Source of the DNA: Thermosulfurimonas dismutans
GTDB lineage: Bacteria; Desulfobacterota; Thermodesulfobacteria; Thermodesulfobacteriales; Thermodesulfobacteriaceae
Length of the DNA: 32,000 nucleotides
Assembly (NCBI RefSeq): GCF_001652585.1
Contig: NZ_LWLG01000001.1
Location: 330,001-362,000 of the forward strand
Direction of reading: 5' to 3'
Below, piece by piece: positions 1 to 31,902 of the stretch (positions are counted from its first letter, which is position 1; the number at the start of each line of letters is the position of its first letter). A program made the position numbers and the translations under genes. Under the pieces are notes generated by a model. That model did no database searches. It had not been told where the DNA came from and saw nothing but the letters and a program-made list of their open reading frames with translations.

Positions 1-202
1 GTATTTCGGCTTTCAATTTTTCGGAGAGGTTGGCGTAAAGCCAGACCTCTCTGTCCGGCGTTTCTGGAAAGGCCCGAGCGTAGCAGTAGACACAGGCATG
101 AAGACATCCCCGGGTAAGATTTATGGAAGGGGTGCCTTTGAGGCACCCGAAGGCCGGCTTTTTTAAAACTGGGGTTTTCCTTTCGATTGTCCGGAGATAC
201 AT
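1..202 (-). CDS. Radical SAM protein, N-terminal 67 codons (gene continues beyond the left edge)
   Basis: Minus-strand frame from ATG (plus 202-200) reads MYLRTIERKTPVLKKPAFGCLKGTPSINLTRGCLHACVYCYARAFPETPDREVWLYANLSEKLKAEI. CLHACVYC is a CxxxCxxC radical-SAM cluster motif in the usual N-terminal position. Absent from the ORF track because it runs off the window edge. Confidence 0.6.
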   Translation of the reverse strand, partial: MYLRTIERKTPVLKKPAFGCLKGTPSINLTRGCLHACVYCYARAFPETPDREVWLYANLSEKLKAEI

Positions 203-413: not shown

Positions 414-483
414 TCCGTGTTTCAGCCTCGGCGGCCTGGAATCTTCCCTTAAGGGTGATTCCGGAGCCGGGAGGTTTGAATTT

Positions 484-2056
<1,573 letters not shown>

Positions 2057-2132
2057 CTAAGGAGTAATCTTTAAGAACTTGAAAGAACGGCCTGTCCATG
2101 TAAGCCACTATTCAGCTTTCAGGGATCAACTT

Positions 2133-2145
2133 TGCTCTTTAAAAG
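2133..2145 (+). promoter_or_regulatory. boxA-like box in the 16S-tRNA spacer
   Basis: TGCTCTTTAAAAG compared with TGCTCTTTAACAA. Confidence 0.45.
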
Positions 2146-2173
2146 TTTTTGTTTGGGGTGAACGGGCAAGGTT

Positions 2174-2252
2174 GGGCCTATAGCTCAGCGTAGGTCAGAG
2201 CGCACGCCTGATAAGCGTGAGGTCGGTGGTTCGAATCCACCTAGGCCCACCA
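2174..2252 (+). tRNA. tRNA-Ile (anticodon GAT), CCA encoded
   Basis: GGGCCTATAGCTCAG...CTGATAA anticodon loop...GGTTCGAATCC...TAGGCCCACCA; cloverleaf folds by eye; located in the rrn spacer. Confidence 0.95.
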
Positions 2253-2277
2253 AATATTTGGGCCGTAGGGCCCTAGT

Positions 2278-2353
2278 GGGGGTGTAGCTCAGTTGGGAGA
2301 GCACCGGCTTTGCAAGCCGGGGGTCGACGGTTCGAGTCCGTTCACCTCCACCA
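2278..2353 (+). tRNA. tRNA-Ala (anticodon TGC), CCA encoded
   Basis: GGGGGTGTAGCTCAG...TTTGCAA loop...GGTTCGAGTCC...CACCTCCACCA. The G3:U70 alanine identity pair is present. Confidence 0.95.
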
Positions 2354-2407
2354 CCTGCGGGTTTAAGAAGAGAGTTTGGGCTCTCGCTTAAGCCCGCAGG
2401 TTGGGTA

Positions 2408-2420
2408 TGCTCTTTGACAA
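2408..2420 (+). promoter_or_regulatory. boxA box preceding 23S
   Basis: TGCTCTTTGACAA has a single mismatch to E. coli boxA TGCTCTTTAACAA. Confidence 0.6.
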
Positions 2421-2440
2421 GTGAATATGGGTATCCGTTT

Positions 2441-2458
2441 GGCATCTTGACCGGCCTG
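2441..2458 (+). other. 5' half of the 23S precursor processing stem (pairs with about 5525-5543)
   Basis: ggcatcttgaccggcctg compared with the reverse complement of cttgggccggcaaggtgcc. In addition, the mature ends GGCCAAGC (2480-2487) and GCTTGGCC (5493-5500) form helix 1. Confidence 0.55.
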
Positions 2459-2479
2459 AGCAAATTTTTAAAAGTTTGT

Positions 2480-5502
<3,023 letters not shown>

Positions 5503-5586
5503 CAGCTGGCTTTATTTAAGAATTCTTGGGCCGGCAAGGTGCCGGCGGTATACCCATATTCGCTTGTCCTAGATTTGGACAAGTTT

Positions 5587-5705
5587 CCCGGGTGCCCATA
5601 CCGGAGGGGCCACACCCGTTCCCATTCCGAACACGGTCGTTAAGCCCTCCAGGGCCGATGGTACTGGGGCGTTACCGCCCTGGGAGAGTAGGTCGGTGCC
5701 CGGGG
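5587..5705 (+). rRNA. rrf: 5S ribosomal RNA
   Basis: CCCGGGTGCCCATACC...CCCATTCCGAACACGG...GGGAGAGTAGGTCGGTGCCCGGGG; the two termini pair with each other. Confidence 0.93.
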
Positions 5706-13255: not shown

Positions 13256-16200
13256 ATGCCCAGTCGACGGGATTTTCTTAAAATGGCGGGGATTGGCCTT
13301 ATGCTTGCGCCGGAAATCCTAAAGGGAGAGGCCAGAGGCGGAGTGAGGCTTCCGATGGTGGGCTATGATTCCAGGAAGTGCCTGGGGTGTCAGGCTTGTG
13401 TGCTGGCCTGTCAGAACGCAAGGGGCCTTTCCCCGGAAACGAGACTGATCGAGATCACGATTTCGGAGAAAGGCCGCTACCCGGAAGTTAAGCCGGAATT
13501 CAGGCTGCGGGTCATGGGGTGCGATTTCTGTATTATGAAGCTCGGTGAAGGGGAGGTTCCGACCTGTGTAAGGGTATGTCCCACCGGGGCGCTTAGCCTG
13601 AAAGGCTCTTACAAAATCAAGCCGGGAAACCTGCCCCTTTCAGGGACGGAAAGGGTGGTGCATACGGTGTGTTTGGCCTGTAACGCCCGCTGTGGCCTGA
13701 GGGTCCGGGTCAGGGGAGATGGGATTGCGGCCGTGGATGGCAATCCCTATCATCCCTATAACCGCGCAGGAAATCCCATCCCCTATGAGACCCCGGTGCG
13801 GGAGAGCCTTTCGGAGGCGGCTAGCACCTGCGGAAAACCCCAGTGTGATCGGGACTATTTAAAGAATACCTACCGGGTCCTTTTGCCCTTGAAGCGAAAC
13901 GGGCCCCGGGGCTCGGGCCGTTTTGTGCCCATCTCCTGGGATCAGCTTATAAGGGAGATCGCCGAGGGCGGAAAACTTTTTGCCCATCTCGGTGACGAGC
14001 GTCACTACCCGGGTCTCAGGGAAATACTTTCGGATGACCCCATTGACCCTTCTGCTCCAGAACTTGGGCCTAAGCGGAATCAGCTGGTCTGGCTTACCGG
14101 GCGCTCGCAGGCGGGCCGAAAGCACTTTATAAACCGGTTCGTGAAACAGGCCGTGGGGTCCGTGAACCACATCGGGCACACGGACATCTGCGGGATCGGT
14201 TTCCGGATGGGAAACTACATCCTTACCGACGGAAGGCAGGTGGAGCTTAAGGCCGATCTCAAAAATTCCCGTTATATGATCGTTTTCGGGGCCAACATCT
14301 TCGCCGCCGGGCAACCTGGAGTGAACACCGCCGGGGCTATCATAGCCCGTAGAGCCGTGGCCGGAAAGCTTAAAGTGGTCATCGTGGATCCTAGGGGGCA
14401 CGAGGGGCTAGCCATAGCCCACGAGTGGCTTCCGGTTAAGCCCGGGGAAGACGGGGCACTTGCCCTGGGGTTTTTGCGGGTCCTCCTTGAGGAAGGGCTT
14501 TACGATCGGGAGTTTCTGGAGCTTCCTTCAAAGGAAGCCGCTTTTCGTGCCGGGCGGAACCTTTACACCAACGCCACCCACTTAGTGGTGACCAATGCGG
14601 ACCATCCTCTTTACGGAAAAATTCTCAAAGTGAAGGATGTGGCCGGCGTTTCCGGAGCGGCCGAGGACCCAATGGTGGTTTCACCAGAAGGAAGGCTTTC
14701 TCCCGCCTCATCGGTGTCCTGCGGTGTGCTTGAGTGGGCCGGGGAAATTGAGCTTGCGGATGGCAGCCGAGTTCAGGCCAAGACCACCTTTCTTATTTTT
14801 AAGGAAGCCGTTTTTGAACATACGCTTGACTACTACGCCGAAAGATCGGGGATCCCGCGGGAGAAGATCGTAAAGATCGCCCGTGAGTTTGCGGCTCACG
14901 CCCCACAGGCCGCAGCCTTTGCCTATCACGGTGGCGGAAACTATCTGGGCGGGGCCTACGCCAGCTATGCCATTGCGCTTTTAAACGCTCTTGTCGGCAG
15001 TGTAAACCGTCGGGGAGGATATCTCCCTTCAGGTGGGGCCGCGGCCGACTGGCGGAGAGGTCTCTATGATCTTAAAGACTTTCCCGGGGCCTTAAAGCCC
15101 CGCGGGGTCAAGATCTCGCGTGAAAAATACGCCTATGAGAGGACCTCGGAATTCAAAAGAAGGGGGTATCCCGCGCCCCTTCCCTGGTTCCCCTTTACCA
15201 AGGGCGGCCTTTCGGTCTCGGCCATGGTGGGGATCGACCGCCAGTATCCCTACCCCGTAAAAATCCTTTTTACCTATTTCTTTAATCCGGTCTATAGCAT
15301 GCCGGGTGGGAAGAGGTTCGAGAGGACGCTCGCCGATCCTGAAAAGGTTCCTCTCCATGTCTCCATAGATGTCACCATAAACGAGACCAACATCTATGCA
15401 GACTACATTGTGCCGGATGTGACCTATCTTGAGGGGCACTACGGGTTTCTCAACCCCCACGCCCCGGGCGAGAGGTTCACCGCGGTGCGTACCCCGGTGG
15501 TGGAGCCTCTAACCGGCCGCACCCGGGACGGGCGCCCATTCTCGCTTGAGACCTTCCTCATTGATCTTGCGGAGTATCTCGGGCTTTCGGGGTTCGGGGA
15601 TAAGGCCATCCCGGGAGAGGACGGAAGGCTTTACCCCCTTCATCGGGCCGAGGATTTTTACCTGAGGGGGATTGCGAATCTTGCCGAAAACGCCGGGGTT
15701 CCTCCTGCGGCCGAGGAGGAAAGACGCTATGTGGAGGCCAACTATCCGGTTTCCCGCCATCGGGATCTTTTAAAGCCCCAAGAATGGGCCCGGTGCTGCA
15801 CGGTGCTCGCCCGGGGCGGGGTGTTTCTGTCTCCGGAGTCCCTCTTTGACGAAAACGGAAATTTTAAGAAGGGCCTTCCCTATGTGCTTTTCTGGAACGA
15901 GAAACTGGCAAGCTGTGGGGATGGTCTTTCTGGGAGACACTTCCACGGCACGGTTCGCTATCGGCCGGTCTCCATCCGTGGGCAGGAGGATTTCCCCTTC
16001 GTGCTTCTATCGCACAAGCTTGCCCTCCACACGCAGTCGCGGACCATCTGTTATCGGCAGGCCCTGGCCCTTTTCCCCGAGCCCCCGCTTCTCGTAAACC
16101 GGATGGATGCGGAGCGCCTGGGGCTTTCCGACGGGGATCGGGTGCGGCTTACCTCGGCCTCCTATCCCGAAGGGGTGATCGTGAGAATCATGGTCTCGGA

Positions 16201-16498
16201 AAGAATTCGGCCCGGATGCGTGGCCCTGCCCCATCACTACGGGCACTGGCAGCACGGGGCCTCGAAACTTCAGGTTTTGCGGGCTGAAGAGGTCTTTCTC
16301 GGGGGAGGCCGGGTGGCCCGTGGAGATCGGGTTCTTCCTGATCCGAGGAGGGCCCGCGGCGCAAATCCAAACCTTTTGAGTTTCCGTTCGACCGAAAGTT
16401 TTGATCTACCTCTGGTAGATACCCTAGGGGGCATTCCGGATTTCAGCCTCACCAAAGTACGGGTAGAAAAGGTCTCAACGGAGGGGAAAGATGCGTAA
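13256..16498 (+). CDS. Tat-exported fusion: 2x[4Fe-4S] ferredoxin domain joined to a TtrA-like (tetrathionate-reductase family) molybdopterin oxidoreductase catalytic subunit, 1080 aa
   Basis: Twin-arginine signal MPSRRDFLKMAG. Ferredoxin motifs CLGCQACVLAC and CDFC...CVRVCP. MopB FS0 motif CLACNARCG. Blocks that match my recollection of Salmonella TtrA: GNPYHP, PKRNQLV, NATHLVV, PWFPF, YIVPDVTYLE, RAEDFYLR. Confidence 0.8.
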   Translation: MPSRRDFLKMAGIGLMLAPEILKGEARGGVRLPMVGYDSRKCLGCQACVLACQNARGLSPETRLIEITISEKGRYPEVKPEFRLRVMGCDFCIMKLGEGEVPTCVRVCPTGALSLKGSYKIKPGNLPLSGTERVVHTVCLACNARCGLRVRVRGDGIAAVDGNPYHPYNRAGNPIPYETPVRESLSEAASTCGKPQCDRDYLKNTYRVLLPLKRNGPRGSGRFVPISWDQLIREIAEGGKLFAHLGDERHYPGLREILSDDPIDPSAPELGPKRNQLVWLTGRSQAGRKHFINRFVKQAVGSVNHIGHTDICGIGFRMGNYILTDGRQVELKADLKNSRYMIVFGANIFAAGQPGVNTAGAIIARRAVAGKLKVVIVDPRGHEGLAIAHEWLPVKPGEDGALALGFLRVLLEEGLYDREFLELPSKEAAFRAGRNLYTNATHLVVTNADHPLYGKILKVKDVAGVSGAAEDPMVVSPEGRLSPASSVSCGVLEWAGEIELADGSRVQAKTTFLIFKEAVFEHTLDYYAERSGIPREKIVKIAREFAAHAPQAAAFAYHGGGNYLGGAYASYAIALLNALVGSVNRRGGYLPSGGAAADWRRGLYDLKDFPGALKPRGVKISREKYAYERTSEFKRRGYPAPLPWFPFTKGGLSVSAMVGIDRQYPYPVKILFTYFFNPVYSMPGGKRFERTLADPEKVPLHVSIDVTINETNIYADYIVPDVTYLEGHYGFLNPHAPGERFTAVRTPVVEPLTGRTRDGRPFSLETFLIDLAEYLGLSGFGDKAIPGEDGRLYPLHRAEDFYLRGIANLAENAGVPPAAEEERRYVEANYPVSRHRDLLKPQEWARCCTVLARGGVFLSPESLFDENGNFKKGLPYVLFWNEKLASCGDGLSGRHFHGTVRYRPVSIRGQEDFPFVLLSHKLALHTQSRTICYRQALALFPEPPLLVNRMDAERLGLSDGDRVRLTSASYPEGVIVRIMVSERIRPGCVALPHHYGHWQHGASKLQVLRAEEVFLGGGRVARGDRVLPDPRRARGANPNLLSFRSTESFDLPLVDTLGGIPDFSLTKVRVEKVSTEGKDA

Positions 16499-17510
16499 AG
16501 TGATCCTTGGGTTCTTTTTGATTCTTGCGGTTTTTGGAACCGGAAACTGGGTGCGGGCGGAGAAGAAGATCTCGGGGCGGATGGTCTGGCGCTTAAGCAT
16601 CTCCCCTCCGCCCGGGGCCAAGAAAGCCCGCCTCTGGCTTCCCTATCCCCGGACGGACAGGTATCAGAGGATACAAGATCCAGAGGTTTTCGGTAATTAC
16701 GCCTATCACGGCCTTTTTACCGACGAGCACGGAAACCTCATTCTCTATCTCGAATGGGATCTTGACCGCACCACAAGGCCGGAGATGGTCCTTTCCTACC
16801 GGGTCTTGCGCTGGGAAGTGGTGCGGAATGATTTTCCTGAACCCCCTCAAAGCTTTAACCCCGAGAATTTCAAAGAGTTTCTTTCCGGAAACCGCTACGT
16901 AGAGGTTGGAGGGGAAGTTAGGAAACTAGCCTTGGAGATCACCCGGGGCAAGACCTCGGTTCGAGACAAGGCCCGGGCTATCTATGACTGGGTGGTGGAT
17001 AATCTCAGGCGGGATCCGAAGGTCAAAGGCTGTGGTAAGGGTATCGTTTGCAAGGTGCTAAAAAATCGGTGCGGGAAGTGTGCGGACCTCAACTCGGTCT
17101 TCGTGGCTCTGTGCCGGGCAGCTGCCATTCCGGCCCGGGAAGTCTTCGGTCTGAGGCTTGGCCAAGAGGGCGGGGAGAACCTCACTGGAGCCCAGCACTG
17201 CTGGACGGAGTTTTTCGTTCCAGGCTACGGGTGGGTGCCGGCTGACCCGGCCGATGTCCTGAAGACGGCCCTCATAAAGGGGCTCTCGCCCAGGGCTCCG
17301 GAATTGAGACCCGTGAGGGAATACTACTTTGGGGCCGTGGATGCCTACCGGGTGAAGCTCTCAGAAGGGAGAGACTTAATTTTCAATCCTCCCCAGGAAG
17401 GTGAGCCCGTAAACTATTTCGTCTATCCATATCTAGAGATAGACGGAAGGCCGGTGGATATCTTTCGTTCGCCAATTCTTGACTTTGAGATCACCTGGGA
17501 GAAGGAATAA
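16491..17510 (+). CDS. Secreted transglutaminase-like (Cys-His-Asp) domain protein
   Basis: The ATG overlaps the upstream stop (ATGCGTAA). Signal peptide MRKVILGFFLILAVFGTGNWVRA. Catalytic-core pattern GKCADLNSVFVALCRAAAIPAR...HCWTEFF...GWVPADPA. Confidence 0.75.
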   Translation: MRKVILGFFLILAVFGTGNWVRAEKKISGRMVWRLSISPPPGAKKARLWLPYPRTDRYQRIQDPEVFGNYAYHGLFTDEHGNLILYLEWDLDRTTRPEMVLSYRVLRWEVVRNDFPEPPQSFNPENFKEFLSGNRYVEVGGEVRKLALEITRGKTSVRDKARAIYDWVVDNLRRDPKVKGCGKGIVCKVLKNRCGKCADLNSVFVALCRAAAIPAREVFGLRLGQEGGENLTGAQHCWTEFFVPGYGWVPADPADVLKTALIKGLSPRAPELRPVREYYFGAVDAYRVKLSEGRDLIFNPPQEGEPVNYFVYPYLEIDGRPVDIFRSPILDFEITWEKE

Positions 17511-19707: not shown

Positions 19708-19730
19708 CCTTTCTCACCTTAGAAAGAACG

Positions 19731-20111
19731 GGGAGGGCCGGTCATAAGCCGGGTTCTGTAGCCTGCGGAGCCTTTCGACCCCCGCAGGTGGTGGTCATTC
19801 CTCTAGGCGGCCGGTTGCCCGGCCGCTCTAGCGGCCTACCCGGGGGCATCGGGCGGGCCACCCTCAAGCGCCCCCCTATGCGGCCTTTCTCCGGGCGGGG
19901 TTTGCCGTGCCTTCCTCCCTCTCGGGAGGAAGCGGTGGGCTCTTACCCCACCTTTTCACCCTTACCCCGAGGCCAAGCCCCGAGGCGGTCTGTTTTCTGT
20001 GGCACTTTCCAGGGGTTACCCCCTCCGGGTGTTACCCGGCGCCCTGCCCTGCGGAGCCCGGACTTTCCTCCGGAGGTCAAAGACCTCCGGCGACCACCGA
20101 CCGACCCTCCC
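19731..20111 (-). ncRNA. rnpB: RNase P RNA, bacterial type A
   Basis: The minus strand contains the universally conserved P4 strands GGAGGAAAGTCCGGGC and ACAGAACCCGGCTTA. It also has GGTAAGGGTGAAA and GGTAAGAGC motifs, and a P1 helix formed by GGGAGGGTCGGTC with GACCGGCCCTCCC. Confidence 0.93.
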
Positions 20112-22888: not shown

Positions 22889-23269
22889 TCAGTTCCGGGC
22901 AACATCGCGGTCAAAACTAAAAGGTCTGTACCCTTTTACGTTGCCCCAAGCCAAAACGATGGCGTCCACTATGTCGACTTTTCTGGCTCCAAAGAGGACC
23001 AGGGCTTCCCTGTAAACGGCAAGCTCTCCTTCTAAGCCTTTGTAGTCCAAGAGTTGGGATAGCTTCTCCACGGCCTTCTCCTTGGGCACACCGTAAACTT
23101 TCAGAAGAACGTAGACGGTCTCGGCAAGAACACTTTCCGGGATGAAGGCCTGAACCTTTCCGAGTTTGACTTGCTCCCAGAAGGTCCGGGCTTTCTCGAA
23201 GTGCTCTGGGTGATCCCCGATGAGGTAGCGGATGATAACGTTAGTGTCTACCACTACCAAACTTTTCAC
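22889..23269 (-). CDS. vapC: PIN-domain ribonuclease toxin VapC
   Basis: N-terminal VVVDTNVIIRYL (first PIN acidic residue), then ...IPESVLAETVYVL... and ...DAIVLA... GTG start overlaps the antitoxin gene. Confidence 0.8.
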   Translation of the reverse strand: MKSLVVVDTNVIIRYLIGDHPEHFEKARTFWEQVKLGKVQAFIPESVLAETVYVLLKVYGVPKEKAVEKLSQLLDYKGLEGELAVYREALVLFGARKVDIVDAIVLAWGNVKGYRPFSFDRDVARN

Positions 23270-23483
23270 GCACGGCCTCCGTCCAGGCTTCTTCCTTGGC
23301 TTTGGTTAGGTCCACGGGCTTAGCGTATTCCTTGAGAGAACCTGCCAGGTCTTCCACCGGCTCAATGATTACTTTCCGATCCCGGAGAACGAGCCTGAGA
23401 ACCTCGGAGCCAAGGGCTTCTCTCATCTCCTTGGGAAGCGTGATTTGTCCCTTTTGGGATACTTTGACAGTCTTAATCAACAT
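23241..23483 (-). CDS. vapB: AbrB/SpoVT-type antitoxin VapB
   Basis: MLIKTVKVSQKGQITLPKEMREALG is the SpoVT/AbrB swapped-hairpin signature. GAGGT SD precedes ATG 23483. The longer track ORF (to 23606) was rejected. Confidence 0.75.
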   Translation of the reverse strand: MLIKTVKVSQKGQITLPKEMREALGSEVLRLVLRDRKVIIEPVEDLAGSLKEYAKPVDLTKAKEEAWTEAVREKFGSGRH

Positions 23484-23509
23484 GACTTTACCTCGCACGC
23501 AAGCTTTAC

Positions 23510-23526
23510 TTTGATTGTAAGTCAAA
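23510..23526. promoter_or_regulatory. Imperfect palindrome upstream of vapB (autoregulatory operator candidate)
   Basis: TTTGATTgtaAGTCAAA in the 63-nt divergent intergenic region. Confidence 0.3.
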
Positions 23527-23546
23527 CCAGAGGGAAAAGGAAGTGG

Positions 23547-23675
23547 ATGCCATTCAAGGAATACGCCTGGGACCGCAAGTGGAACCTCAACTGGACGGCC
23601 GATCACCTAGCAACTGAGGCCAAACTCATAAACGACCTTTTGGCTCAGATCCAAAACCAAAACATAAGGGGTTAA
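23547..23675 (+). CDS. 42-aa ORF, a C-terminal paralogue fragment of the next gene
   Basis: MPFKEYAWDRKWNLNWTADHLATEAKLINDLLAQIQNQNIRG. FKEY..W...NDLLAQ..Q aligns with residues 67-99 of the 117-aa product. May not be expressed. Confidence 0.3.
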   Translation: MPFKEYAWDRKWNLNWTADHLATEAKLINDLLAQIQNQNIRG

Positions 23676-29028: not shown

Positions 29029-29427
29029 ATGAAGCGTCGAGAAATATTAAAGTGGATATTCGCAGGGGGAGCGGCTGGAGTTTTTGGTTACATGGGCCTA
29101 AAAACTGTGGTCTATTTTCTCCCCAGACCGCCGAAAAAGGTTTTTGTCAAGGCCGAGGAACTCCCTCCCGCTGGAACTCTCAAGGTGAAAGAGGAATTCT
29201 TTATGGTGAGGCCTTCCGATGGTCATCTCCGAATTCTTTCCCGCCGGTGTCCTCACCTGGGCTGTACGGTGAACTATAGCTCTGGAGAAGATCTCTTTAT
29301 CTGTCCTTGCCATCAGAGCCGGTTTGCTCTGACCGGGGCCTATCTCTCCGGGCCGGCCAAAAAGGACCTTGTGAAAATCAAGTGGGAAAAAGTTGAGGGC
29401 GGAATCATCCTCGAAATTCCGGGTTAG
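29029..29427 (+). CDS. Rieske [2Fe-2S] protein, bc/b6f-type, with a Tat-like N-terminal anchor
   Basis: MKRREILKW followed by a hydrophobic helix. CPHLGC-x12-CPCH is the CxH...CxxH ligand pattern, including the extra disulfide cysteines typical of bc-complex Rieske proteins. Confidence 0.85.
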   Translation: MKRREILKWIFAGGAAGVFGYMGLKTVVYFLPRPPKKVFVKAEELPPAGTLKVKEEFFMVRPSDGHLRILSRRCPHLGCTVNYSSGEDLFICPCHQSRFALTGAYLSGPAKKDLVKIKWEKVEGGIILEIPG

Positions 29428-29434
29428 TCCCCGA

Positions 29435-30235
29435 GTGGCCTGGGGACTTTCAGCCAGTTTCCTCGTGGCGATCGTTACGGGTATTCTGCTGGCTTATCCT
29501 TTTAATGAGAGCTATCCCCTCCTTTCTACGGTGGGCATAGAGAACGTAGTACCCTTCGGGAGGTTTTTTCGAAGATTGCATTACTGGAGCGGATTCTTTA
29601 CCCTAATTCTCCTTTTCTATCATGCTGCCGAGACCTTAGTGGCCGAAGGGTACCGCAGACGCGATTGGGCAAGGTGGCTGGCCCTTTGCGCCACCCTACC
29701 GCTTTTGATTCTGATAGCCTTTACCGGCTACGTGGCCCGAGGCGACGAGACTGGACGGTTTGCCGGTTATATCGCCGAAAGTTTGGTGCTCAAGGTCCCC
29801 CTTTTAGGATCTCTGTTGAACGCTTGTCTTTTCTTGGTCCGGGAGTCCGGAGTCCATCGACCTTATCTCTTTCATTTCTACGCCTCGTTAGCCCTTTTCT
29901 TTGTTTCAGGAATCTGGCACTTCCGGCTACGGCGCTTGCCTCTAGAAGATCTCCTTGGGTGGCTCCTTGCCCCTATGATCCTGGCCCTGGTCTATCCCTT
30001 GGGGTTGCATGCCCCTGGACCATACCTTTTGATAAAAGGCCCCTGGTTTTTCCTAGGGGTACAGGAAGCCCTGAGATATTTTCCACCGGTTTGGGCTGGT
30101 ATTTTATTTCCGGCTTTAGGGATCTTGCTCTATGTGCTGGTTAAAATGGATAGTCTAAGGAAGTGGGTCTTCGGAGGCCTCCTAGTCTGGACAGGGGTTT
30201 ATATGTTCTTCATGGTTTACGGGCTTTTGCGATGA
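29435..30235 (+). CDS. Compact dihaem cytochrome b (b6-like part fused to a subunit-IV-like part), about 266 aa
   Basis: Helix B reads LHYWSGFFTLILLFYH (H-x13-H). Helix D reads HFYASLALFFVSGIWH (H-x14-H). IKGPWFFLGVQEALRY occupies the PEWY position. The start is ambiguous: GTG 29435, or TTG 29393 which would overlap the Rieske gene. Confidence 0.75.
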   Translation: MAWGLSASFLVAIVTGILLAYPFNESYPLLSTVGIENVVPFGRFFRRLHYWSGFFTLILLFYHAAETLVAEGYRRRDWARWLALCATLPLLILIAFTGYVARGDETGRFAGYIAESLVLKVPLLGSLLNACLFLVRESGVHRPYLFHFYASLALFFVSGIWHFRLRRLPLEDLLGWLLAPMILALVYPLGLHAPGPYLLIKGPWFFLGVQEALRYFPPVWAGILFPALGILLYVLVKMDSLRKWVFGGLLVWTGVYMFFMVYGLLR

Positions 30236-31479
30236 GAAATCATTGGTGGTTTTTAGTTCTAATGCTGGCCATGTTTGCGGCTCTGATCCAAGAGTTGCGT
30301 TTCAAACGCGCCGACAAGGTCTATACCTTAGCCTCCGGTCGGGTGGACATGTGTCTTGCCTGCCACAAGGAGGCTCCTGGGAAAGCCCATGCCCGAGGGG
30401 TAGTGGGGTGTGCGGACTGTCATTTGGGCGACCCCCTAACGGTAGAGAAGAAGCGGGCCCACCGGGGGATGGTGAAAAATCCGGGAGACCTTCGGGTAGC
30501 GGATCAGACCTGTGGTCGGCCGGAATGCCATCCGGGCTATGCCGAAAGGGTCAAAAAGAGCCTTATGGCCACCAACCGAGGTATTATTACTACTCTCCGT
30601 TATTACTGGGGGGAAATCGAAGACTTTCACGCTGAAGCTTCGGTGGAGACCCTAATGAAGACCGACGAGACCTCACCGGCCTTGGACTATTTCCGCAAAC
30701 TCTGTGGCACCTGCCACCTGTGGCTCCCCAAGGAGAAGCTTCCGGGATTTCTTAAGAAAAAGGGCGGAGGTTGCGTGGCCTGCCATTTGATTCCGGGTAA
30801 GAATAAGGATAAGAAGGTACATTCCATACTTACCCGAAAGATCCCGCTTGAAAATTGCGTGCGCTGTCACAACCGGAGCGGACGTATCGGATTGTCTTAC
30901 CAGGGGCTTTATGAAGACGAACAATACGGAGCGCCTATAGAGGAAGGCGAATTCGCGGCCGAAGAACTCGAAGACGGACGTTTTGTGGCCCGTATACCAC
31001 CGGATGTACATTTTAAGGCCGGTATGGTTTGCGTGGACTGTCACACCCAGAACGAGACCATGGGAGACGGCAAGGCCTACGCCCACTTTGAAGAATCGCT
31101 TGAGATCACCTGCGAGGCTTGCCACGAGGGGACAGGCCGAACCCGAAAGGGCACGCTCCTCACCAACCTCAAAGTAAAAGACGGAAAAATTTACTGGCAG
31201 GCCAAACTCAGTGGAAAAGAACTTGAAGTTAAAAGGCCGGATCCGGTGGCCTGCCGACATCCGGTACACCGCAGGCTCACCTGTGAGAGTTGTCACGACC
31301 AGCGGGTTCCCCAGTGCTTCGGTTGCCATGTGAGGCGGGATCCCCGAGAAAAACAGCTTGACAAGTTGTCTTTTAAGGAGACCCCCGGCCTCTGGGAGGA
31401 GTTCCGGAGCTATATGCGGGTTGAGGTGCCCACCCTCGGAGTTCGAGAAGACAAGGTAGTGATTTTGGTCCCAGGATGA
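30232..31479 (+). CDS. Multihaem c-type cytochrome (9 CXXCH plus 1 CX4CH) with an N-terminal anchor/signal; ends at an in-frame TGA
   Basis: ATG 30232 overlaps the cytochrome b stop (ATGA). Hydrophobic N-terminus WWFLVLMLAMFAALI. Haem motifs CLACH, CADCH, CGRPECH, CGTCH, CVACH, CVRCH, CVDCH, CEACH, CESCH, CFGCH. Confidence 0.85.
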   Translation: MRNHWWFLVLMLAMFAALIQELRFKRADKVYTLASGRVDMCLACHKEAPGKAHARGVVGCADCHLGDPLTVEKKRAHRGMVKNPGDLRVADQTCGRPECHPGYAERVKKSLMATNRGIITTLRYYWGEIEDFHAEASVETLMKTDETSPALDYFRKLCGTCHLWLPKEKLPGFLKKKGGGCVACHLIPGKNKDKKVHSILTRKIPLENCVRCHNRSGRIGLSYQGLYEDEQYGAPIEEGEFAAEELEDGRFVARIPPDVHFKAGMVCVDCHTQNETMGDGKAYAHFEESLEITCEACHEGTGRTRKGTLLTNLKVKDGKIYWQAKLSGKELEVKRPDPVACRHPVHRRLTCESCHDQRVPQCFGCHVRRDPREKQLDKLSFKETPGLWEEFRSYMRVEVPTLGVREDKVVILVPG

Positions 31480-31515
31480 CAGGACTTCATTTCCTTTCTT
31501 TCCCCGGAGGGGAAG

Positions 31516-31902
31516 TTGGAGAAGGAATTTAAACGCATCACCTGGTCTTTCATGTATCCCCACAATACCGGCAAGGCCCGTACTTGTAAGGACTGTCACC
31601 AGTCAGCCAAGACCGTGGGCCTGGGTTACGGTAGCCTTACCTACTTAGGAAAGGGTCGCTTTCGATTCACGCCGGCTGAGGCTCCCTCGGAGTTGCTCGA
31701 AATTGAACACGGGCTTTCGGCGGTGGTGGATCTTTCGGGGAAACCCTTGGTGAACTTCCGCCCCGGGGTGAGAGGCTTTAATGGGAAGGAAATTCGACAA
31801 ATTTTAAGGGTTGGACTCTGCCTCTCGTGTCACAGAGACTTTTCCGATCCCGTTATGCGGAACTGGCCTCCCAGGAAGCCCTGTCCGGTTTTCAAGGAGT
31901 AG
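31516..31902 (+). CDS. Dihaem cytochrome c segment in the same frame as the preceding cytochrome. It is probably that protein's C-terminal extension, separated only by TGA 31477-31479.
   Basis: CKDCH and CLSCH motifs. No signal peptide when read from TTG 31516. No stop between 31480 and 31902 in the frame of the upstream gene. Confidence 0.55.
   Translation: MEKEFKRITWSFMYPHNTGKARTCKDCHQSAKTVGLGYGSLTYLGKGRFRFTPAEAPSELLEIEHGLSAVVDLSGKPLVNFRPGVRGFNGKEIRQILRVGLCLSCHRDFSDPVMRNWPPRKPCPVFKE

Follow-up and report, generated by a model that had tools for sequence, protein, structure and literature searches.

An in-frame TGA in a multihaem cytochrome gene of Thermosulfurimonas dismutans: a probable dodecahaem selenoprotein encoded with a compact Rieske/cytochrome b pair

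What takes the place of cytochrome c1 or f where a Rieske protein and a cytochrome b are encoded directly before a multihaem cytochrome, and how long is that cytochrome? Both questions are raised by an operon in Thermosulfurimonas dismutans, which we analysed within a window of 32,000 nucleotides (contig NZ_LWLG01000001.1, positions 330,001 to 362,000 of assembly GCF_001652585.1). An earlier note on this DNA had described three translationally coupled genes, encoding a Rieske protein, a compact cytochrome b and a cytochrome of 415 or 556 amino acids (aa) with ten or twelve haems. The open reading frame listing and direct reading place all three on the + strand (Table 1), and both pairs of numbers proved exact, because the cytochrome gene contains an in-frame TGA at 31477-31479, with 10 haem motifs before it and 2 after it (11 CXXCH and one CX4CH among the 12). 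We conclude that this TGA very probably encodes selenocysteine (Sec) and that the gene is, in all likelihood, a single one for a 556-aa dodecahaem selenoprotein, cut short by gene callers to about 415 aa.

Table 1. Features of the operon and of the hairpins that follow the UGA. Positions are those of the window unless alignment columns are given.
Feature	Position	Strand	Description
Rieske iron-sulfur gene	29029..29427	+	132 aa; KRREIL twin-arginine (Tat-type) N-terminal anchor, CPHLGC, CPCH
Compact cytochrome b gene	29435..30235	+	266 aa; GTG start; stop 30233-30235; b6-like four-helix haem domain and three-helix subunit-IV-like tail
Qo (quinol oxidation site) motif GPWF (G202-F205)	30038..30049	+	inside IKGPWFFLGVQEALRY; invariant in 62-69 family members
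Multihaem cytochrome gene	30232..31902	+	ATG start; 556 aa read through internal UGA; ExtM superfamily
In-frame TGA, very probably Sec416	31477..31479	+	motif VPG-U-QDF; codon census of 83 loci; coding periodicity
Hairpin core resembling a selenocysteine insertion sequence (SECIS)	31497..31516	+	stem 31498-31504 with 31509-31515, loop CGGA
Hairpin of group A (window and L001-L015, 16 loci)	stem columns 21-28 with 33-40 from U of UGA		89.8% of cells paired; 3 pairs changed on both sides
Hairpin of group B (29 stand-alone Sec loci)	stem columns 16-22 with 28-34		loop UGGAU; 82.8% of cells paired; 3 pairs changed on both sides

The evidence for selenocysteine begins with the codon itself. We compared 83 loci, made up of 80 species-level loci (from a scan in which 428 genomes encode a relative), two look-ups and the window. 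The site holds TGA in 45 of the 83 and TGC or TGT in the other 38; TAA, TAG or any other codon occurs in none. The closest homologues, from Thermosulfurimonas and Thermodesulfatator, have been called as proteins of 414-416 aa that end in ...VPG and bear the RefSeq name 'hypothetical protein', and the full-length homologues of Desulfobulbaceae, cable bacteria and Desulfocapsa (567-617 aa) read TPGCQD at the position of the TGA. Directly behind the UGA comes a conserved stretch, QDF[IV][ST].LS..GK, two invariant CXXCH motifs lie farther downstream, and the downstream part matches positions 478-585 of the ExtM protein family model. Among the 16 Thermodesulfobacteria sequences, substitutions at codon positions 1:2:3 number 323:171:663 in the 13 codons that come after the UGA and before any restart codon, and 886:496:1863 in the 25 codons upstream of it.

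These data bear directly on two simpler explanations. The first takes the TGA for a true stop, so that the locus would encode two proteins, a decahaem cytochrome of 415 aa and, restarting at TTG 31516, a dihaem protein of 128 aa. Gene callers and RefSeq all annotate the genes in this way (414-416 aa plus 128-141 aa), and an Rfam search for SECIS elements gave no match. Yet the stretch of 13 codons from the TGA to the earliest potential restart is conserved as protein and keeps coding periodicity, the Cys-type orthologues run continuously across the site, TAA or TAG stands there in 0 of the 83 loci, and a conserved hairpin follows the TGA; we therefore regard a true stop as very improbable. The second explanation, a pseudogene or a sequencing error, is the usual reading of a lone in-frame stop in one sequence. 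Here the same TGA recurs in 44 other independent assemblies, including the isolate genomes of Thermodesulfatator autotrophicus and Thermosulfurimonas sp. F29, and coding periodicity persists beyond it, which refutes this explanation for practical purposes.

A reassigned genetic code was also considered and rejected. TGA ends cytochrome b in every linked locus and ends the cytochrome gene itself in six relatives; it is thus an ordinary stop in these genomes, and the code has not been reassigned. A Sec-type form of MccSep, a pentahaem polysulfide reductase, has been reported with a SECIS in T. dismutans (PMC13510729), and the genus therefore decodes selenocysteine.

A hairpin just downstream of the UGA is the second line of evidence. 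In the window its core is lengthened by a lower stem to about 31491-31527; over the hairpins of all Sec-type loci, the loop lies 23-28 nucleotides (nt) downstream of the UGA. Position-specific pair counts, with Cys-type loci as controls, were adopted in place of whole-segment folding energies, and the locus groups were defined by identity clustering. The Sec-type loci fall into two such groups, each with a well-paired stem of its own (Table 1); in group B, one stem pair splits into CG in 15 loci and UA in 14. In the 38 Cys-type loci, the same columns are paired in 30-45% of cells (45% for the group A columns), and the longest uninterrupted stem averages 4.9 bp, versus 8.4 bp in group A and 7.0 bp in group B. 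The hairpins are clade-specific to Sec-type loci and are not kept in Cys-type loci. A single Cys-type locus, L036:7113 (TGT; VPGCQDM), nests among the Sec-type loci as a lone gene and keeps a decayed hairpin (TCCTTCCTGGATACAGG); it looks like a recent replacement of Sec by Cys.

Several observations nevertheless pull against selenocysteine. Searched around the UGA at permissive E-values, Rfam returned no SECIS family and one spurious match to a plant microRNA. Folding energy does not tell the two kinds of locus apart (for the 63 nt that follow the codon, a minimum of -14.2 kcal/mol in Sec-type versus -15.0 kcal/mol in Cys-type loci), and the z-score of the window segment against shuffled sequences is 0.11. 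The covariation counts come from related sequences, so their independence is overstated, and ARAGORN found no tRNA-Sec in the 32-kb window or in 85 loci. With these points weighed, we still hold Sec416 to be very probable.

The Sec form of ExtM-like cytochromes looks undescribed in the literature searched; mention of it elsewhere is conceivable. As far as it was searched, the table of prokaryotic selenoprotein families in a 2026 review (PMC13188914) has three cytochrome entries (ExtKL/MccSep, the GSU2204 family and octahaem tetrathionate reductase) and lacks ExtM. No cytochrome is named in the main text of the BSepDB paper, and the MccSep paper treats gsu2935 (extM) solely as a downstream gene (PMC13510729). 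Three proteins from other subfamilies, P0195, P0202 and P0269, also end exactly at ...PG, and further Sec-containing clades may exist.

What kind of cytochrome is it? The NCBIfam model for ExtM, NF040943, matches both halves of the gene, with 231 bits for the first and 29 bits for the second (model positions 13-302 and 478-585), and the full-length protein scores 279 bits. Because this is below the equivalog cut-off of 800, we consider the cytochrome a homologue or sister family of ExtM rather than an equivalog; P0267 and P0304, which are true equivalogs found after scanning thirty representatives, score 826 and 881 bits. The family shares the features of the ExtM superfamily, namely a length of about 560-620 aa, an N-terminal membrane helix (residues 2-23 in the window protein), 12 haem motifs and full-length homology, and a profile search of 1.84 billion representatives yielded 377 superfamily clusters at E<=1e-30. 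Within NCBIfam, the full-length cytochrome matches the ExtM, ExtN and ExtO models only. The last of these, NF040968 'FeS_ExtO' (416 positions), matches the cytochrome over the residues matched by the ExtN model and misses the Rieske protein; what the model contains seems at odds with its description as the iron-sulfur subunit ExtO. A phmmer search of the PDB and a Foldseek search (set ending April 2026) returned no meaningful relative (best E 0.74). The AlphaFold model of the cytochrome has a mean predicted local distance difference test score (pLDDT) of 78.5 and a predicted template modelling score (pTM) of 0.78.

The earlier note had pointed to the Geobacter Cbc complexes and to a multihaem c-type partner in place of c1 or f. 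Both ideas hold, since a cytochrome gene with 12 haem motifs follows cytochrome b and its product is homologous to ExtM/CbcM. The Geobacter cluster extHIJKLMNOPQS encodes a 14-kDa Rieske protein (ExtO), a 23-kDa cytochrome b (ExtP), a 17-kDa membrane protein (ExtQ) and the 12-haem ExtM (PMC5877670, PMC2825233). It was called a 'bc complex' in 2010 (PMC2825233) and is the same as Cbc6/CbcMNOPQR, a predicted quinol:cytochrome c oxidoreductase whose role is still unexplained (PMC13591261). Compared with ExtMNOPQ/Cbc6 of Geobacter sulfurreducens (GSU2935-GSU2932), the window operon shares a small Rieske protein, a b6-like cytochrome b and a 12-haem cytochrome. It differs in having one fused b+IV subunit where Geobacter has separate ExtP and ExtQ, and in having Sec416 and Cys341 where ExtM has Cys, within the same PGCQ-type motif, and His, respectively. 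It has no ExtN, ExtS, ExtKL, porin or rhodanese gene beside it. The operon is thus a compact version of the already known ExtO/ExtP+Q/ExtM (Cbc6) module and not a new kind of complex.

The Rieske protein matches the Pfam Rieske family with 45 bits (cut-off 20), and its boxes, CPHLGC at 29248-29265 (residue 74) and CPCH at 29302-29313 (residue 92), include the disulfide cysteines; the length, RR N-terminus and boxes described earlier are borne out by direct reading as well as by this match. Cytochrome b matches Pfam Cytochrome_B with 44 bits, and its nearest NCBIfam model is ExtP (63 bits, below cut-off). Its family profile matches cytochrome b6 in the PDB at E 1e-23, and cytochromes b6 are its closest solved relatives. 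The two bis-His pairs that the earlier note had recognised, H49/H63 (x13) and H147/H162 (x14), align with the haem ligands of b6 and are invariant in 62 of 62 family members.

The fused subunit-IV-like tail likewise stood up to closer inspection, with seven hydrophobic helices equivalent to b6 plus subunit IV and with GPWF placed in the tail. The tail alone matched neither Pfam Cytochrom_B_C nor any PDB entry in a single-sequence search, and for this reason a comparison of the family profile with bovine cytochrome b was needed. In that comparison the IKGPWFFLGVQEALRY stretch aligns onto the bovine PEWY segment, IKPEWYFLFAYAILRS. KGPWFF is present in 69 of 69 members of the compact cytochrome b family (251-317 aa).

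The suggestion that GPWF is an unclassified Qo variant fails, because Kao and Hunte had classified the motif in 2014 as one of six major Qo patterns and placed it in their 'GPWY clade' (PMC4122944). That clade, found in delta-proteobacteria, Ignavibacteria and Nitrospinae, carries GPWY or GPWF, and its Rieske partners are predicted to be of mid+ to high potential (PMC4122944). The window operon matches this description in its Qo motif and in its Rieske sequence, where CPCH-Q-S-R-F corresponds to the 'S-F' (mid+) signature as read against the same paper. To the b6f and menaquinol bc complexes, the operon is alike in its four haem-b histidines with b6-type x13/x14 spacing, its seven helices and its Rieske protein with disulfide-forming cysteines; unlike them, it has no c1/f or dihaem c subunit. 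Because the N-terminus of the window cytochrome b is about 35 residues shorter than that of cytochrome b6, the region of b6 Cys35 (haem ci) is absent.

The layout of the operon is tight. The GTG start of cytochrome b at 29435 lies 7 nt past the Rieske stop and is favoured because a spacing of 7-13 nt is kept in all linked relatives, and the ATG of the cytochrome at 30232 overlaps the cytochrome b stop as ATGA. The identical gene order, with an ATGA or GTGA overlap, was found in 16 of 16 Thermodesulfobacteria loci examined, a recurrence that far exceeds chance.

Conservation of the triad as a unit, expected from the earlier note, held in part. All 16 Thermodesulfobacteria loci, the window among them, are of the Sec type and have the Rieske and cytochrome b genes directly upstream. 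The remaining loci comprise 29 stand-alone Sec forms, from vent and seep 'Deltaproteobacteria' metagenome-assembled genomes (MAGs), one labelled Seep-SRB2; 37 stand-alone Cys forms, from Desulfobulbaceae, Desulfocapsa and Electronema; and L036. By tblastn, no Rieske or cytochrome b gene lies within 8 kb of the cytochrome in these 67 loci, which weighs against the proposed complex and is the reason why we rejected a universally conserved triad. The compact Rieske/cytochrome b pair occurs as a two-gene unit without a cytochrome c gene in Dissulfurimicrobium, Dissulfuribacterales and Desulfobulbaceae, and published work on cable bacteria describes both partners there, a Rieske/cytochrome b and a homologue of ExtM. 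This pattern fits a partnership whose genes share an operon only in Thermodesulfobacteria and, accompanied by further genes, in Geobacter.

We next consider what a selenocysteine might do in such a protein. Across the 83 loci, the 12 haem motifs are invariant, as are only 7 spare histidines and 2 methionines; the remaining invariant ligand candidates are Cys341 and Sec/Cys416. Cys341 is invariant throughout the 83-locus family and is His or Cys across the superfamily. The residue aligned to Sec416 is Cys in the Desulfobulbaceae and cable-bacteria orthologues and also in the true ExtM equivalogs P0267 and P0304 (VTPGCQTF), and among the best 150 superfamily representatives Met accounts for about 89 and Cys for about 37-42, with three proteins ending at ...PG. 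In the AlphaFold model, the turn that joins strands 408-414 and 418-423 of a beta-rich domain (pLDDT 80-95) holds Sec416. Because alternation of Met, Cys and Sec, or of His and Cys, is typical of distal ligands, we infer that Sec416 may be the distal ligand or an active-site residue of one haem, and Cys341 likewise at another.

A few further positions in the superfamily caught our attention. Glu21 (window 30292-30294) lies where the N-terminal membrane helix reaches the periplasm. All of 100 homologues have it, and it may play a part in docking to cytochrome b, in whose Qo motif the usual Glu is missing. Position 375 (window 31354-31356) is Gln in the window protein, in three aligned Thermodesulfobacteria proteins and in the Cys-type P0085 (EKQLDKL or similar), and His in the Cys-type proteins of Desulfobulbaceae (ETHLDKL), a possible linked change of ligand. 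P0221, P0228, P0235 and about 40 others are longer, at about 900 aa; they are extended at the N-terminus by about 320 aa free of haem motifs, and Met occupies the Sec-aligned site.

The obvious comparison is with MccSep (ExtKL), described by Mihara et al. in 2026 as a pentahaem selenocysteine polysulfide reductase (PMC13510729). Both proteins are periplasmic multihaem c-type selenoproteins, confirmed for MccSep and predicted here, whose annotation is split at a UGA; both come in Sec and Cys versions among orthologues and have a hairpin resembling a SECIS. Each also has its Sec in a loop of a C-terminal beta domain and an invariant Cys outside the haem motifs (Cys239 of MccSep ligates haem 2). 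MccSep occurs in the same taxa and is encoded beside extM in Geobacter. It differs in having 5 haems instead of 12 and the motif DG-U-P instead of PG-U-QD, and, unlike MccSep, the window cytochrome is membrane-anchored and, in Thermodesulfobacteria, operon-linked to Rieske/cytochrome b. No sequence or fold relation between the MccSep family (GSU2937-2936) and the window cytochrome emerged from phmmer against the PDB or from Foldseek, whose sets may lack MccSep entries.

Other precedents are more distant. TsdA, SoxAX and DsrJ share a Cys (here Sec) behaving like a distal haem ligand and hosts that cycle sulfur, and a native Sec-ligated P450, described in a preprint (PMC11703216), is the one reported precedent for a natural Sec haem ligand. 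The fold and haem type differ in all of these proteins, which have no sequence relationship to the window cytochrome, where ligation is a prediction. The His/Cys haems of TsdA, SoxAX and MccSep are sites of S-S chemistry (PMC13510729), and by analogy a reaction of a sulfur compound at a His/Sec haem is probably the most likely function here.

Taken together, these comparisons suggest a mechanism. The operon likely encodes a three-subunit, membrane-bound, quinol-linked complex with a 12-haem selenoprotein, ending in a His/Sec haem that would handle a chalcogen substrate. Its parts would be a Rieske [2Fe-2S] protein exported by the Tat pathway, a cytochrome b with seven helices that belongs to the GPWF/GPWY clade and a membrane-anchored 12-haem cytochrome replacing c1/f, the last made as a single 556-aa product if the hairpin directs decoding of the UGA as selenocysteine. 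Electrons from menaquinol at the Qo site would pass to the Rieske cluster, along the haem chain and on to the His/Sec haem, where a periplasmic chalcogen substrate (polysulfide, tetrathionate/thiosulfate or similar) would be reduced, by analogy with TsdA, SoxAX and MccSep. The more specific proposal, that Sec416 serves a c-type haem as its distal ligand and forms the catalytic end, with S-S or Se bond chemistry, of a complex driven by Rieske/cytochrome b, is one that we put forward tentatively.

Three considerations count against the mechanism as proposed. The case for Sec416 as a ligand is the alternation of residues at its site; in MccSep, the sole Sec multihaem enzyme with a solved structure, the Sec is not a haem ligand (PMC13510729); and the S-F signature of the Rieske protein predicts a mid-to-high potential, which is awkward with a menaquinol donor and a low-potential acceptor haem of the His/Cys type. 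On the second of these, haem ligation is still suggested for Sec416, unlike the Sec of MccSep, because its site alternates with Met in homologues. On the third, the poor fit of the Rieske potential with menaquinol and low-potential haems means that the complex may run in the opposite direction.

In such a reverse flow, the selenoprotein would oxidise a reduced periplasmic sulfur compound or cytochromes, and electrons would enter the menaquinone pool through Rieske/cytochrome b. For the Rieske partners of APWY and GPWY cytochromes b, a mid-to-high potential has been predicted, and APWY complexes have been argued to work in reverse (PMC4122944). Among the hosts are sulfur disproportionators and cable bacteria that oxidise sulfide. 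Reverse flow is weakened by the fact that Thermodesulfatator species are hydrogen-oxidising sulfate reducers. In addition, GPWF/GPWY complexes are biochemically uncharacterised, and low-potential donors could reach menaquinone without a Rieske/cytochrome b complex. We consider this direction rather doubtful.

It is also conceivable that the complex is a pure electron conduit, as the earlier note had suggested, in which a chain of 12 haems relays quinol electrons to soluble acceptors, periplasmic or extracellular. Sec/Cys416 would then tune the potential of one haem or serve a structural, non-catalytic role. Met, a typical electron-transfer ligand, stands at the site in most distant homologues, no substrate-handling genes lie near the operon, and Geobacter Cbc6 has been described merely as a predicted quinol:cytochrome c oxidoreductase (PMC13591261). 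Against a passive role, Sec is costly and almost always catalytic, several clades have retained it (45 of 83 species-level loci), and His/Cys haems are catalytic in TsdA, SoxAX and MccSep (PMC13510729). Extracellular electron transfer, moreover, has no support at this locus, because the window holds no genes for porins or outer-membrane cytochromes. A conduit therefore seems unlikely to us, and a quinol-linked complex with a sulfur-reducing His/Sec haem is the arrangement we prefer.

Housekeeping genes (nicotinamidase-like, NAPRTase, RsmB) flank the operon and show synteny with Thermosulfurimonas sp. F29; a promoter scan returned nothing, and terminator-like sites were no more frequent than expected by chance. 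Elsewhere in the window lie a complete 16S-tRNA(Ile)-tRNA(Ala)-23S-5S operon (482-5704, +), with a G+C content well above that of the coding regions, as in thermophiles; a 1080-aa molybdopterin oxidoreductase gene (13256-16495, +) with Fe4S4, Molybdopterin and Molydop_binding domains; a transglutaminase-like gene (16491-17507, +) overlapping its end; a class A RNase P RNA (19730-20108, -); and a type II toxin-antitoxin pair in which a small PIN-domain gene overlaps one for a MazE/AbrB-like antitoxin (22889-23606, -).

The main novelty is an unannotated, widely conserved and, as predicted here, selenocysteine-containing dodecahaem cytochrome coupled to a minimal bc core. For annotation, this means that at least 45 species-level genomes carry the mis-split gene, as a 'hypothetical protein' of about 415 aa and an orphan of about 130 aa; the hosts include cultured Thermodesulfatator and Thermosulfurimonas and MAG material of Seep-SRB2, a partner of anaerobic methanotrophic archaea (ANME). 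Judged against the 2026 review table as far as it was searched, the ExtM-like selenoprotein looks like an additional prokaryotic selenoprotein family. Because Sec is nearly always catalytic, it can be argued that ExtM-type cytochromes, those of Geobacter Cbc6 and cable bacteria included, are enzymes or specially ligated redox gates and not passive wires. The Thermodesulfobacteria operon offers a compact system, in culturable organisms, for studying the uncharacterised GPWF/GPWY clade. If the proposed role of Sec416 is true, sulfur metabolism would have in this cytochrome a second multihaem selenoenzyme, evolved independently of MccSep, and the long-unexplained ExtM/Cbc6-type complexes would gain a physiological role.

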